The position numbers and the translations under genes were made by a program. Shown here in pieces: positions 40,856-48,629 of a stretch of 52,385 nt of DNA. The stretch covers positions 1-52,385 of the forward strand of contig JBBREH010000003.1 of the NCBI GenBank assembly GCA_038203095.1, written 5' to 3'. Source of the DNA: Candidatus Doudnabacteria bacterium. GTDB taxonomy: Bacteria > Patescibacteriota > Doudnabacteria > UBA920. How positions within the stretch are numbered: the first letter of the stretch is position 1; each line of letters opens with the position of its first letter. The notes below the pieces were generated by a model. The model did no database searches. It was not told the origin of the DNA and saw only the letters and a program-made list of their open reading frames with translations.

Positions 40856-41941
40856 TTATGTGTGAAGCAGTCCAAAAACTACTTTAGCGATTTGGGGTTT
40901 AATTGGTGCGATATTGTCCAGATTAGGGTTCAATTTCAACGAGGTTTTAAAATTTTTGCTCAATATTTCGTTGTTAATTTGGAGTTGTAAATTTTTTTCA
41001 GCCTGTAAAACAAATTTTTTAGAAAGTAGATATTTTAAGTTAAATTTTTCCTGTCCGGGCAGAGTATGGGTTATGATCATTGGCAGATTATACTGTAGGC
41101 CTTCGGCTATACTAAGTCCACCGGGTTTAGTTAAAAATAGGTCGGCGATGGCGTAGAGTTTTTGCATTGGCTGATAATAGCCTAATACTTTTACATTGGT
41201 ATCGGCAAAGTTTTTTGTTAGAGCGTCAAACAACTTTTTATTTTTGCCACACACGACTATTATTTTAATATGAATATTGTCCGACAGGGTTTTTAACAGC
41301 TCTTCATCAACCCCGGTACCTAAAGAGCCGCTGGAAACCAATACTATTTTTTGTTCGGGCGGTATTTCCAGGTTTTCCTTAACCGATGAAATGCTAATTT
41401 CAATTTTGGGTTTTAAAGTTATTCCACAAACAAATATTTTAGAAAGAGGTATGCCAAGGATGACCATCTGCTCCTTTTGTTCTTCTGTGTTTACCAAATA
41501 AAAATCCGCCTGGTCATATAACCAAAATTTATGCAAATGAAAATCGCTAAAAGCAACGCCAAACTTACCCGTGTACAATTGTTTATGTTTTAAATAGGCG
41601 ACCACGGCCGAGGCTGTGGTTTGTGTGGTAATAATCATGTCAGGCCGGAACTCTTTTATTAGAGAGTTAACAGCACCGAAATTGAAACCGGCTATAAAAA
41701 TCCTAAAAGGATAAACTAGGTAATATCCAAAATCATAAAGCCATTGCCAAAGAAAGGGTATGTATTTGTTAATTAGCTGGTGTAAGCTAACAATAATATG
41801 TTCAAACTTTCCAGTTTGGACTTGTCCAATATCGGCCAACTTAACTTTCGCCCCCGCCTCGCTTAAATAAAAGCCGATGTTCTCGGCAATGCTTTTGTGG
41901 CCCAGGCCAACGGAGGTGTAAAGGACGAGAATTTTTTTCAT
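40856..41941 (-). CDS. GT28 / MGDG-synthase-like glycosyltransferase
   Basis: SVGLGH, SDFHLH, CGKN, TKPGGLS, PGQE. Confidence 0.85.
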   Translation of the reverse strand: MKKILVLYTSVGLGHKSIAENIGFYLSEAGAKVKLADIGQVQTGKFEHIIVSLHQLINKYIPFLWQWLYDFGYYLVYPFRIFIAGFNFGAVNSLIKEFRPDMIITTQTTASAVVAYLKHKQLYTGKFGVAFSDFHLHKFWLYDQADFYLVNTEEQKEQMVILGIPLSKIFVCGITLKPKIEISISSVKENLEIPPEQKIVLVSSGSLGTGVDEELLKTLSDNIHIKIIVVCGKNKKLFDALTKNFADTNVKVLGYYQPMQKLYAIADLFLTKPGGLSIAEGLQYNLPMIITHTLPGQEKFNLKYLLSKKFVLQAEKNLQLQINNEILSKNFKTSLKLNPNLDNIAPIKPQIAKVVFGLLHT

Positions 41942-41942
41942 A

Positions 41943-42563
41943 TTATTGTAAAATTTTTGCCACTACTCTGCACGGGGCGGCTTCGGCTTGGAATTTGGCG
42001 GGTAGAGCAATTACCTCAAAAGTTTGATTGCCAACGAGTTGGCCAAGATTAGTAAGGTTTTCAATAATCAGGATATCAGCCGAAAGTAAAATTTTGTGTG
42101 TGGGATATGGCGCGCGGTCGGGGCTAGGCGTGTCCATGCCGATTATGGAAATTCCGATGTCGGCCAGCTTTTTCGCAAAGGCCCCACTAATTTCCGGGTA
42201 GTTTAAATAGTAGCCTTCTTCTTCGAACTCCGTTGCCCAATCAAAATAAACTAAAACAATATCACCCTTTTTAATGTCAGCCTTTTCCAGTAAATCCACA
42301 TCGGCTGATGGTTTTCCGCGTGTGTCAATAATTACTCCCCTGCCAAAAAATTTTTCCGTCGGATATTCGTGTAAATACTTGCCGCCCAAAAGCATGTGTG
42401 CCGGCGCGTCGATATGTGTGCCCACGTGCATCCCGGTTTTTAGGTCATAATGTAAAACTCCGTCTTTAGCCACGTCTGAAACTTTTACCAGCTCTGCTGT
42501 CGGGTCGCCCGGAAACACAGGCATATTGCTGTTAAAAGTGTGAGTGAGATCAATGTATTTCAT
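41943..42563 (-). CDS. Cyclase / kynurenine formamidase-like metal hydrolase
   Basis: MPVFPGDP, HVGTHIDAP, GMDTPSPD, IIENL. Confidence 0.88.
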   Translation of the reverse strand: MKYIDLTHTFNSNMPVFPGDPTAELVKVSDVAKDGVLHYDLKTGMHVGTHIDAPAHMLLGGKYLHEYPTEKFFGRGVIIDTRGKPSADVDLLEKADIKKGDIVLVYFDWATEFEEEGYYLNYPEISGAFAKKLADIGISIIGMDTPSPDRAPYPTHKILLSADILIIENLTNLGQLVGNQTFEVIALPAKFQAEAAPCRVVAKILQ

Positions 42564-43876
42564 AGTAATAACAAAGCCTGTTTAAGTTGTTCATAATTTA
42601 CCGCAATTTTAATGGCTTGCTTCTTTTTTTTCATAGCGCCTTGTAGTTGTTTGGGTAAAGGAATTTTTTTGTTAATCACCGGCTCAACTATCTCCTTAAA
42701 TTTGGCAGGATGTGCGGTGGAGAGAACTATTATTGGGTAACGGTCTTTGTCTGTTAATTGATATTGTAATGCTGCTTTTACTCCTACGGCAGTGTGGGGG
42801 TCTAAAATATAGCCATTCTTTTTATAAATTTGCCTGATGATATGTTTCGTGTCAGTGTCACTTATACTAATACCAATAATATCTTTTGTCATCTGCCGAT
42901 GGCTTTTGTGGTATATTTCCAGAATTCTGGCAAAATTGCTGGGGTTGCCTACGTCCATTGCGTTGGAAATAGTTTTTTTGGATTTTTTTGGCTCAAATTT
43001 TCCACTTTGTAAATATTTGGGCACAATGTTATTGCTGTTGGTTGCGGCAATAAATTTATGAATGGGCAGACCCATTTTTTTAGCCATTAATCCGGCAAAT
43101 AAATTGCCGAAGTTGCCGCTGGGAACAGCAAGTATTGGCGACCGGTTGTCGCCTTGTTTTTTAAGTTGTGCGTATGCCCAGAAATAATAAAACGATTGCG
43201 GCAAAAGTCGGCCAAAATTAATCGAGTTGGCGGAAGAAAATCGGATCTGGCGATTTAAATCAGCGTCACCTAAGACTTGTTTGGCCAGTTTTTGGCAATC
43301 ATCAAAACTGCCTTTAACCTCAATGGCTGTAATGTTATGGCCGTAAGTGGTGAGTTGTTTTTCCTGCAAGGGGCTGACTTTGCCGCTCGGGAATAAAATA
43401 AAAACTTTTATATTTGGTACTTTAAAAAAGCCGCTGGCGACTGCGCTGCCGGTGTCGCCGGAGGTGGCAACAATAATGTTTAACGGATTTTTATGGGCCT
43501 TTAAAAAATAGCTTAAAGACCTTGAAAGGAACCGCGCGCCAAAATCTTTAAACGCCATAGTGGGACCGTGGAAAAGCTCCAATAGGTATAAATTGTGATT
43601 CAATTTCTTTAGAGGCACAGGAAAAGTAAAAACGTCGTTGATAATGTTTTGTAACTGTTTTTCCGGAATGTCGGCGCTGTACTTTTTTGCCACAGAGAGC
43701 GCCAGCTGATTAAAATTTAATTTGTCAATATTTTTAAAAAACGCCGGCGGTAGAGACGGCCAGCTGTCCGGCATAAACAGGCCTCTATCGGGAGCCAGGC
43801 CTAAACACAGAGCATCCGACAAGCTAAAATTTTTGGATTTTTTATTAGTGCTATGAAATCGCATATTTAAGATCAA
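42560..43876 (-). CDS. thrC: Threonine synthase
   Basis: LFHGPTMAFKDFG, ATSGDTG, SANSINFGR, VPSGNFG, DPHTA, TAHPAKF. Confidence 0.95.
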   Translation of the reverse strand: MILNMRFHSTNKKSKNFSLSDALCLGLAPDRGLFMPDSWPSLPPAFFKNIDKLNFNQLALSVAKKYSADIPEKQLQNIINDVFTFPVPLKKLNHNLYLLELFHGPTMAFKDFGARFLSRSLSYFLKAHKNPLNIIVATSGDTGSAVASGFFKVPNIKVFILFPSGKVSPLQEKQLTTYGHNITAIEVKGSFDDCQKLAKQVLGDADLNRQIRFSSANSINFGRLLPQSFYYFWAYAQLKKQGDNRSPILAVPSGNFGNLFAGLMAKKMGLPIHKFIAATNSNNIVPKYLQSGKFEPKKSKKTISNAMDVGNPSNFARILEIYHKSHRQMTKDIIGISISDTDTKHIIRQIYKKNGYILDPHTAVGVKAALQYQLTDKDRYPIIVLSTAHPAKFKEIVEPVINKKIPLPKQLQGAMKKKKQAIKIAVNYEQLKQALLLL

Positions 43877-44381
43877 GACCTTTATAGATTAAACCATCAA
43901 TAACTTTTTTTGCCATTTCTTCCTTGCTTTGGTCGCCGGAGTTAAAAGTATAGTTGGCAAATTTTTCGTATAATACCGCCCTTTCTTCCATTAACTTTTT
44001 TAAGCCTTTTTCTTTAAGCCCAACAATCCCATTTTTGTAGAGCCTCTCCCCCATGCGTTTTTCAATAGTTTCAGGAACGGTTTTTAAATAAACAACCGTA
44101 GAATTTTGTTTGATTTTGTCCATGGCCAGGGGCGAATAAATCATACTGCCCGGCGGAGCAAAAACTAAACTTTCAAAATTAAGTTCTAAGGTTAACTTTT
44201 GTTCCAAAGCGGTAAGCGCATCTTCGCCGTTTTGCTTCATATAGTCGTCATGATGCATCCTTGTGGTTTTCATAATCAGTTTATCCAAATCCACAAATTT
44301 CCAGTTAAGCATTTCAGCAACCACTTTACCCACTGCCGATTTTCCTGCTCCTGCCATGCCAATAAATGTAATTCCGCGCAT
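43851..44381 (-). CDS. Shikimate-kinase-fold kinase, possibly a homoserine kinase
   Basis: P-loop GMAGAGKS, DLD, RxxLY; GGG replaced by PPGS; overlaps thrC. Confidence 0.7.
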   Translation of the reverse strand: MRGITFIGMAGAGKSAVGKVVAEMLNWKFVDLDKLIMKTTRMHHDDYMKQNGEDALTALEQKLTLELNFESLVFAPPGSMIYSPLAMDKIKQNSTVVYLKTVPETIEKRMGERLYKNGIVGLKEKGLKKLMEERAVLYEKFANYTFNSGDQSKEEMAKKVIDGLIYKGLDLKYAIS

Positions 44382-44385
44382 AAAT

Positions 44386-45711
44386 TTACAAATTAAGCGA
44401 ATTAACTATTTTATCAAACTTTTTATTGGAAAGTAGTTTTTTTGATAAAATTATTTGTCTTAAGGTTTGGCCACTGAGTACAGTTTCCTTAACGAGTTGG
44501 CTGACCGCGTCGTAGCCCAAAAGCGGGCTAAGCAAAGTTGCATAGGCCGTGGAATTTTCCAGCAGTTCGCGGCAGCGTTTTTTGTTGGCTTTAATGCCGG
44601 CTATACACCGGGTGGAAAATTGTAGTAGAAGTTCATCTGTCAATTTTAATGATTCAATTAAGCGGTCGGTAAGAATTGGTAGCATAACGTTTAATTCCAT
44701 TTGTGCTCCTTCGGCCGCGTGTTCAATGGTAAGATTGTTGCCGGAAACTAAAAAGTATAACTGGCTAACGGCTTCGCTTAGTACAGGATTTACTTTGCCC
44801 GGCATTATGGATGAGCCGGCCTGGAGTTCGGGCAATGCTATTTCTCCAATGCCGCCCCTGGGGCCGGCGCTTAGCCAGCGAATGTCATTGGAAATTTTAG
44901 ACAGATCAACGCAAAAAGCAGTTAAGCTTTGGGATAGAAATAACAGGTCTGTGCTGCTGCTGGTTTGTGCCATTAAGTTTTTAGCTGGTCTGACAGGTAG
45001 TTTGGTGACCTTTTGCAGCTCAGGGTAAAGTTTTTTTATATATTTCGGCGAAGCATTTACCGAGTTGCCAACGGCAGTACCTCCTAAATTTAAATCGCAA
45101 AGCGCTTCAACCGCATGGGCAATTCTGTCTTGTCCACGGGTAATATAAGCAGAGTAAGCAGTAAACTGCGAGCCTAAAGTAATTGGCACAGCATCTTGCA
45201 TATGCGTGCGGCCAAGTTTGTGAATGTCTTTAAATTCTTTTGCCTTTTTATCTAATGTAGATTTTAAAATATTTATGGTTAGCAATAATTTTTTTGTTTG
45301 GCGAATGGCGACAATTTTTAAAGCCGAGGGCATTACATCGTTTGTCGATGCCGACATATTTACGTGGTCGTTGGGGTGCACTATTAGTTTTTTGCTGGTT
45401 GATGATAATATTTCCGTAGCCCGATTAGCAACTACCTCATTTACGTTCATATGGTTAGACGTTCCGGCTCCGCCCTGAAACGCAGGCAGAATAAATTCGC
45501 CGTCTAATTTCCCCGTCAATATTTCATCACACGCCATTACTATGGCGCGTTTCCTTGGCTCGTCCAATTCCCCCGCCGCGGCATGAGCCAGGGCCGAAGC
45601 TTTCTTAATTTCCGCAATGGCATAAATAAACTCCTTTGGAGTTTTTCTAAAATCAAAAGGAAAATTTTTAATTGCTTTTTCGGTTTGTGCGCCCGAGTAT
45701 TTTTGAGGCAT
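44386..45711 (-). CDS. Aspartate ammonia-lyase / class II fumarase family
   Basis: FQGGAGTSNHMNVNEV, STND, GRTHMQDA, GSSIMPGKVNP. Confidence 0.9.
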   Translation of the reverse strand: MPQKYSGAQTEKAIKNFPFDFRKTPKEFIYAIAEIKKASALAHAAAGELDEPRKRAIVMACDEILTGKLDGEFILPAFQGGAGTSNHMNVNEVVANRATEILSSTSKKLIVHPNDHVNMSASTNDVMPSALKIVAIRQTKKLLLTINILKSTLDKKAKEFKDIHKLGRTHMQDAVPITLGSQFTAYSAYITRGQDRIAHAVEALCDLNLGGTAVGNSVNASPKYIKKLYPELQKVTKLPVRPAKNLMAQTSSSTDLLFLSQSLTAFCVDLSKISNDIRWLSAGPRGGIGEIALPELQAGSSIMPGKVNPVLSEAVSQLYFLVSGNNLTIEHAAEGAQMELNVMLPILTDRLIESLKLTDELLLQFSTRCIAGIKANKKRCRELLENSTAYATLLSPLLGYDAVSQLVKETVLSGQTLRQIILSKKLLSNKKFDKIVNSLNL

Positions 45712-45715
45712 AAAA

Positions 45716-46072
45716 TTAATCCCTGCTTAGCATTAATATTCTTTTTTCAAACCCACTGTTTTTTTTGCGTTTTTCATTTTGTATGACCGCGATGTCTTCT
45801 ATGCTCCAGCCTTTAAGTTTTAAAATTGCGTAAATTATTTCAAAAATATCAGCCAGCTCTTCTTGAGTGTTGCCAACTTTAATGGAATGCCGTAATTCGT
45901 GAGCTTCTTCAATTAATTTTTGTAACAGATATTTTAAGAACTCATTGTCCGATGTTAATACGCGGGTTGGCACAATTTGGTTGTTTTGGTCTTTTATTAT
46001 TTGCGGAATATTATCCCGAACTAATTTTGGATATTCAGACTCGATGGGGAGATTGGTGGGCTTAAAATCCAT
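45716..46072 (-). CDS. MazG-like NTP pyrophosphohydrolase (phosphoribosyl-ATP pyrophosphohydrolase-like)
   Basis: KLVRDNIP, KLIEEAHE, EELADIFE. Confidence 0.85.
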   Translation of the reverse strand: MDFKPTNLPIESEYPKLVRDNIPQIIKDQNNQIVPTRVLTSDNEFLKYLLQKLIEEAHELRHSIKVGNTQEELADIFEIIYAILKLKGWSIEDIAVIQNEKRKKNSGFEKRILMLSRD

Positions 46073-46135
46073 AAAAGGAAGGAATTTAATTCTATCCTAT
46101 TATAATGCTTTTTGTTATAATATGTAAGATCCTCC

Positions 46136-46225
46136 GGAGAGGTCGCATAGTGGTCTAGTGCGCTGGTTTCGAAAACCAGTAACCTCGTAAGGGGTTCGAG
46201 GGTTCGACTCCCTCCCTCTCCGCCA
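46136..46225 (+). tRNA. tRNA-Ser(CGA)
   Basis: Anticodon arm ctggt-ttCGAaa-accag, long variable arm, CCA. Confidence 0.95.
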
Positions 46226-46265
46226 CAAAAAATCCACGCAGTCCGCGTGGATTTTTTATGTAATT

Positions 46266-48573: not shown

Positions 48574-48628
48574 TGTAGCGTGCCGATTCATTGGCGTTTT
48601 AGGATGGCCCATAAATGGGCACGCTACA
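48574..48628. repeat. REPIN-like doublet between alr and ddl
   Basis: tgtagcgtgcc...ggcacgctaca 11-bp terminal inverted repeat. Confidence 0.75.
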
Positions 48629-48629
48629 T

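Follow-up and report, generated by a model that had tools for sequence, protein, structure and literature searches.

The DNA considered here (hereafter the window) is a stretch of 52,385 nucleotides, contig JBBREH010000003.1 (C3 in our numbering) of a Candidatus Doudnabacteria genome (Patescibacteriota; assembly GCA_038203095.1) that amounts to 1.27 Mb in 58 contigs and is scored 100% complete. It carries a packed run of six minus-strand genes, which encode a small MazG-like protein, a class II lyase related to aspartase (AspA), a kinase of the shikimate kinase (SKI) fold, the threonine synthase ThrC, a cyclase-family hydrolase and a glycosyltransferase (GT). The kinase and ThrC are the main subject of this report. 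Comparison of sequences, tree and gene contexts indicates, with high probability, that the 176-aa kinase serves as an alternative homoserine kinase.

The gene run and its junctions

The gene identities come from Pfam and NCBIfam profiles, and the junctions were read directly on the sequence. The MazG-like open reading frame (ORF) and the AspA gene are separated by 4 nt, as are the AspA stop and the kinase ATG. The 3' end of the kinase gene overlaps thrC by 14 nt if ThrC is taken to start at the ATG at 43864, which is where homologue alignments begin; a TTG at 43876 merely gives the longest ORF. The tetranucleotide ATGA is common to the ThrC stop and the cyclase start, and a single nucleotide lies between the cyclase stop and the GT start. 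An earlier note on this DNA, made from the sequence alone, had described the aspA-like, kinase, thrC and cyclase genes as overlapping or nearly abutting. These are indeed real minus-strand ORFs with the identities that it gave, and the span that it delimited (42560-45711) holds the first three of them, whereas the cyclase gene lies just outside.

The kinase: fold and active-site residues

The kinase is the sole SKI-family gene of the genome and matches the SKI profile over residues 11-162, above the gathering cut-off of 22.1 bits (score in Table 1). Like the shikimate kinases AroK/AroL (EC 2.7.1.71; PDB 1kag, 4y0a, 2iyq), it has a P-loop (GMAGAGKS), a DxD motif (D31-L-D33) and a C-terminal Arg (R134), within the same fold. 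In contrast, the AroK motif GExxFR reads GEDALT, with T57 at the position of the shikimate-binding Arg, the GGG motif is replaced by PPGS (P77-G-S79), and the lid is K116-N-G118, with N117-G118 in place of the R-P of AroK. The kinase has, in other words, none of the residues (GExxFR Arg, GGG, lid RP) by which AroK/AroL are recognized. The retained and altered motifs read as the earlier note had given them, and their residues vary little or not at all among 25 aligned family members, so that they are not chance states.

An AlphaFold2 (AF2) model of the kinase reaches a pLDDT of 93.5 and its top PDB folds are all shikimate kinases (TM 0.86 to 4y0a); its best PDB sequence matches are also shikimate kinases, and the source names encountered for its relatives are all 'shikimate kinase'. 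Among NCBIfam models, however, the best match is the homoserine kinase model NF040667 (hom_kin_desulfo) with 114.4 bits, versus 92 bits for the best shikimate kinase model. The close family of the kinase (55-70% identity) comprises about 48 clusters, all metagenome-derived. The database cluster of the kinase itself is a 160-aa form covering 91% of the 43851-44381 ORF; this shorter form is probably a gene-call error, since family conservation begins at the ATG at 44381.

A branch shared with Desulfovibrio homoserine kinases

SKI-fold homoserine kinases have a genetic precedent. Indeed, DvMF_0971 from Desulfovibrio vulgaris Miyazaki F complemented a thrB mutant of E. coli (Price et al. 2018, PMC5764234), so that the AroK-like enzyme that the earlier note invoked from Desulfovibrio genetics does exist. 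Desulfovibrionaceae genomes were retrieved with a 16S probe, and members of NF040667 (225-248 bits) as well as AroK paralogues were located in them. A hidden Markov model (HMM) of the kinase family gives 80-101 bits to these homoserine kinases versus 43-50 bits to the AroKs of the same bacteria.

A maximum-likelihood tree of 77 sequences (support given as ultrafast bootstrap/SH-aLRT) leads to the same grouping. AroK proteins fused to other aro products served in it as references for true AroKs. A clade of 42 rows, supported at 98/98, includes the kinase family, two other groups from the candidate phyla radiation (CPR), five Desulfovibrionaceae homoserine kinases and 16 other sequences. The two CPR groups are typified by the kinases of genomes G161 and G199. 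The Desulfovibrio AroKs and the CPR AroKs fused to AroA, AroB or AroE fall outside this clade, and two of three nucleoside monophosphate (NMP) kinase outgroups root the tree outside it. Within it, the close family of the kinase forms a joint clade (100/98) with the operon kinases of the G161/L343 type described below.

The residues follow the tree. In the alignment, AroKs display F-R, GGG and an RPSLTG-type lid, whereas clade members display F/A-L, GGS/PGS/SGS and an x-R-G lid; the absence of an Arg at the AroK R58 site and the loss of the third Gly of GGG are common to the window kinase and the Desulfovibrio homoserine kinases. Among the 148 nearest cluster representatives (50%-identity clusters drawn from a library of 1.84 billion proteins), 141 carry the clade signature, i.e. 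no Arg at the R58 site and GGS/PGS for GGG, and none carries the full AroK signature.

Two kinds of SKI fusion were encountered on the AroK side. AroA-AroK, AroA-AroK-AroE, AroK-AroB and AroE-AroK proteins occur in CPR and metagenome loci (L012, L020, L024, L028, L017, L078). In two CPR genomes (G147, G214), an SKI domain is fused to Formyl_trans_N, a PurN/Fmt-like domain (L022:1423-2604, L027:1420-2604); its SKI part groups with AroKs and the fusion is unusual.

ThrC and its association with the kinase

ThrC is a standard threonine synthase, as judged from its sequence. Its score on TIGR00260 (Table 1) far exceeds the equivalog cut-off of 167.1, it can be aligned from end to end with E. coli ThrC (1vb3, 339 bits), and its pyridoxal phosphate (PLP)-lysine motif HGPTMAFKD aligns to that of the E. 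coli enzyme.

Related kinase loci were obtained by a family-alignment search of public contigs, a single-protein query having given nothing. Of about 18 close-family loci with enough sequence, 16 have ThrC directly after the kinase, and the other neighbours vary. Relative to AspA, the pair is found on the opposite side in two loci (L035, L057). Exceptions to the kinase-then-ThrC order within the close family are L055, L059 and L060, and one further locus (L064) has a frame break. Locus L060 (2-2983) reads AspA-kinase-cyclase-GT, with no ThrC between kinase and cyclase, the kinase being kept here without its partner. In a group of 47% identity (L061-L063), the order is tig-kinase-clpP(-rny), again with no ThrC.

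The association extends to sister groups. In G161, a Saccharibacteria metagenome-assembled genome (MAG), a kinase 46% identical to that of the window is flanked by a fused aspartate kinase-homoserine dehydrogenase on one side and by ThrC on the other. A search of public genomes with an alignment of the G161 group brought up complete thrA-asd-kinase-thrC operons at 14 CPR loci. The thrB slot is taken there by kinases that share 38-46% identity with the window kinase. The G161 locus itself (L033, contig C4) reads thrA-kinase-thrC, yet asd was undetected anywhere in this genome, which is scored 100% complete. G199 has a CPR kinase of this clade that is less closely related, and ThrC comes directly after it as well.

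Among 401 sampled Patescibacteria genomes, 24 have a thrC above the cut-off and one has a canonical thrB above it; the unpublished genome G154 counts as one of the thrC-positive genomes in this tally and supports no other statement here. Kinases of the 98/98 clade co-occur with thrC in four genomes belonging to different families: the genome of the window (G000), G161, G199 and G273. Cross-tabulation of thrC, thrB and SKI across the phylum gives no clean rule, and in many CPR genomes thrC is present with neither a thrB nor a kinase of this clade; the clade therefore fills the CPR homoserine kinase gap only in part.

Pathway genes in the genome and its relatives

The earlier note had reported no aro genes nearby, and this holds both around the locus and genome-wide. 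A search of the genome for aroC (chorismate synthase) was negative, as were tblastn searches with CPR queries for aroA, aroB and aroE. Nor did the genome yield a canonical GHMP-type thrB, whose presence the earlier note had named as an argument against its proposal, or a TIGR02535-type candidate.

The upstream steps of threonine synthesis are likewise missing from the genes found. Searches of the genome for hom (homoserine dehydrogenase), including tblastn with a CPR hom domain, were negative, and so were those for asd (aspartate-semialdehyde dehydrogenase), for which tblastn with a CPR asd was blank. The possibility of a hidden asd or hom was rejected; the only weak asd-like match in the genome is glyceraldehyde-3-phosphate dehydrogenase (GAPDH). 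The genome does encode a stand-alone aspartate kinase (contig C23:19330-20649, corresponding to L042:6331-7653; TIGR00657, 229 bits versus a cut-off of 209), and the approximately 900 nt between this orphan gene and the end of C23 contain no long open frame. Four public genomes carrying the same module (G401-G404) have no hom match and no aspartate kinase over the cut-off, and asd was found in G404 only. Globally, hom was not found in any of the five module-bearing genomes.

The surrounding genes

Table 1. Coordinates of the six-gene run and of its candidate promoter in the window
Feature	Position	Strand	Evidence
MazG-like ORF, small (118 aa), first gene of the run	45716..46072	-	weak PF03819, 20.5 bits, below cut-off
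AspA-like class II lyase (441 aa)	44386..45711	-	NF008909, 512 bits vs cut-off 510
SKI-fold kinase (176 aa), putative homoserine kinase	43851..44381	-	PF01202, 94.7 bits
Threonine synthase ThrC (434 aa from ATG at 43864; stop 42560-42562)	42560..43864	-	TIGR00260, 316 bits
Cyclase-family metal-dependent hydrolase (206 aa)	41943..42563	-	PF04199, 104 bits
MGDG (monogalactosyldiacylglycerol)/diglucosyl-diacylglycerol-synthase-like glycosyltransferase (GT, 361 aa), last gene of the run	40856..41941	-	Pfam/NCBIfam profiles
Candidate operon promoter (CTTACA, 18 nt, TATAAT), just upstream of the MazG-like ORF	46099..46128	-	consensus scan only

The AspA-like lyase finds its best PDB match in a Bacillus aspartase (1j3u, 365 bits), with fumarases scoring up to 338 bits, and its gene is probably co-transcribed with kinase and thrC. 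The earlier note had also given AspA a part in the route, linking fumarate and aspartate. This proposal is rejected, as AspA-GT and AspA-cyclase-GT arrangements occur without the pair. Indeed, a genome of the same genus (G206) shows the order HSP20-GT-AspA-...-RNase HII-Ddl, with GT directly beside AspA, and searches for cyclase, ThrC and kinase found none of them anywhere in that genome; AspA-cyclase-GT without kinase and ThrC is found in L263, L264, L279 and L310. The GT is syntenic in relatives. Therefore, the conserved unit is kinase plus ThrC, set into a syntenic AspA/cyclase/GT backbone that relatives carry without the pair.

The cyclase-family hydrolase keeps the HxGTHxDxPxH motif. Proteins 47-69% identical to it exist in numerous CPR lineages and also in other phyla, and it occurs in genomes without a kynurenine pathway. 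Its best PDB matches (8hmo, 1r61) are uncharacterised 'metal-dependent hydrolases'; a literature search for 8hmo, the best match, found no paper. As the family includes a ring-lactam isatin hydrolase, it was considered whether the enzyme might supply the kinase by hydrolysing homoserine lactone or N-acyl-homoserine. This idea was demoted to a distant prospect because only one of the 80 closest cyclase loci in public genomes carries kinase and ThrC.

Upstream of the run, a tRNA-Ser gene (anticodon CGA; 46136-46225, plus strand) is divergent from the candidate promoter and is followed by a 13-bp terminator-like hairpin (46227-46257). Just beyond the Ddl gene, about 55 nt (about 48574-48629) have many matches on both strands in the related genomes G206 and G401, and this stretch looks like a dispersed palindromic repeat.

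Proposed function

From gene identities, clade membership, operon contexts and the failed searches for other pathway genes, all of which are supported directly, we infer what the kinase acts on and where its homoserine comes from. The kinase would phosphorylate L-homoserine with ATP to O-phospho-L-homoserine, which the translationally overlapping ThrC would turn into L-threonine. It belongs to a large SKI branch that includes the validated Desulfovibrio enzyme and in which the Arg, GGG and RP lid of AroK are replaced. Three observations argue for homoserine as substrate, namely the clade shared with the Desulfovibrio enzymes, the thrA-asd-kinase-thrC operons of the sister groups and the conserved ThrC adjacency, and the alternative homoserine kinase proposed in the earlier note is very probably the right assignment.

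The lineage would then keep the last two steps of threonine synthesis as a two-gene module, and homoserine from outside the cell would be the starting point for threonine. The use of external homoserine is suggested by the searches that found neither hom nor asd here and no hom in the four relatives. The earlier note had likewise proposed that threonine is made from imported homoserine; the searches for the upstream genes fit this proposal, while import itself stays a conjecture. Taken together, a SKI-fold, ATP-dependent L-homoserine kinase that feeds ThrC, in a module most likely converting external homoserine to threonine, is the reading that we hold with good confidence.

Several points weigh against it. 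The score of the kinase on NF040667 (114.4 bits) stays well under the curated cut-off of 197 and leaves it outside that family, and rescue of a thrB mutant within the SKI-fold homoserine kinase clade was shown for DvMF_0971 alone (PMC5764234). The close family has PPGS versus the GGS of the validated enzymes, and a K-N-G lid versus x-R-G; with such differences in pocket and lid, a shifted substrate is possible. Furthermore, no ThrC is nearby in L055, L060 and L061-L063, and ThrC was not found in some genomes that have a clade kinase, e.g. G222. On the supply side, no homoserine transporter or homoserine source was identified and, without hom and asd, there is no internal supply of substrate; as the assembly is in 58 contigs, a missing gene could also sit in a gap.

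Among the rival explanations, the one that fares best, although it is improbable, is that kinase and ThrC act on a related substrate other than homoserine, for instance another 4-hydroxy amino acid such as 4-hydroxythreonine, or that the phospho-product feeds a side reaction of ThrC, so that the product is not homoserine-derived threonine. It draws on the PPGS and K-N-G states, which were unseen in the sister thr-operon kinases or the Desulfovibrio enzymes, and on the occurrence of the close family in genomes where hom was not found. However, ThrC has the score, the full-length alignment and the intact PLP motif of a regular threonine synthase, the kinase is nested in a clade with members in complete thr operons, and no alternative-pathway genes are nearby.

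A slightly weaker candidate, which we regard as quite improbable, sees in the pair what is left of a thrA-asd-kinase-thrC operon in decay, carrying no flux at present and in the course of being lost. The upstream steps that were not found, the absence of the pair from the same-genus genome G206, the kinase without ThrC in L060 and the frame break in L064 would all suit such decay. Yet both genes are intact, their catalytic motifs are invariant over at least 25 members that have diverged to 55-70% identity, and the translationally coupled layout is kept in many genomes without hom; this invariance and this layout argue for continued selection.

Automated annotation takes the kinase for a true shikimate kinase (AroK), a reading in favour of which stand the Pfam SKI match, the closest PDB sequences and folds and the names of its relatives. 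This is hardly credible: searches of the genome turned up no further gene of the shikimate pathway, the shikimate-binding Arg and GGG are lost, and the kinase stands outside every AroK group of the tree and is coupled to ThrC.

Comparison with known homoserine kinases

If the kinase acts on homoserine as proposed, it would catalyse the same reaction as canonical ThrB (GHMP family, TIGR00191) and occupy the same slot before thrC, with an unrelated fold. Its reaction would also be that of the Desulfovibrio-type homoserine kinases (NF040667), which it resembles in its SKI fold, its clade and its loss of Arg58 and of the third Gly of GGG, both kinds occurring in genomes without canonical thrB. However, the two are only 28-33% identical, and the GGS and x-R-G lid of the Desulfovibrio type contrast with PPGS and K-N-G in the window kinase. 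Moreover, the Desulfovibrio gene does not adjoin thr genes and works in a complete pathway, whereas the window kinase gene overlaps thrC in a genome where hom and asd were not found.

The nearest relatives beyond the close family are the kinases of the CPR thrA-asd-kinase-thrC operons (G161/L343 type), which belong to no curated family. The kinase gene is directly upstream of thrC in both cases, but these operons encode the full route from aspartate to threonine, whereas the lineage of the window keeps the last two genes, inside an unrelated AspA-cyclase-GT block. A literature search, limited to one library of papers, found no paper on a SKI-fold homoserine kinase in Patescibacteria. The enzyme type as such is already known (Desulfovibrio, 2018); what is new is an uncurated branch with its own lid and pocket variants, and its setting in a truncated pathway.

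Implications for annotation and for threonine metabolism

Since the curated model NF040667 misses this kinase family and its relatives are named shikimate kinase, pathway tools likely report a thrB gap in such genomes, and recognition of this branch would fill part of the thrB gap of the CPR. It would also mark the features that set homoserine-type apart from shikimate-type enzymes, namely the lack of Arg58, GGS/PGS and an altered lid.

A life on host cells is assumed for these bacteria. A module for the last two steps of threonine synthesis, in genomes where the synthesis of homoserine was not found, hints at metabolites taken from hosts. More tentatively, and with odds that we place somewhat below even, the pair may be a self-contained homoserine-salvage cassette, kept, gained or lost as two genes in probably host-dependent ultra-small bacteria without asd and hom, whose PPGS and K-N-G may reflect adaptation to a salvage role. 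If so, what these bacteria obtain from a host or from their environment would be homoserine and not threonine.

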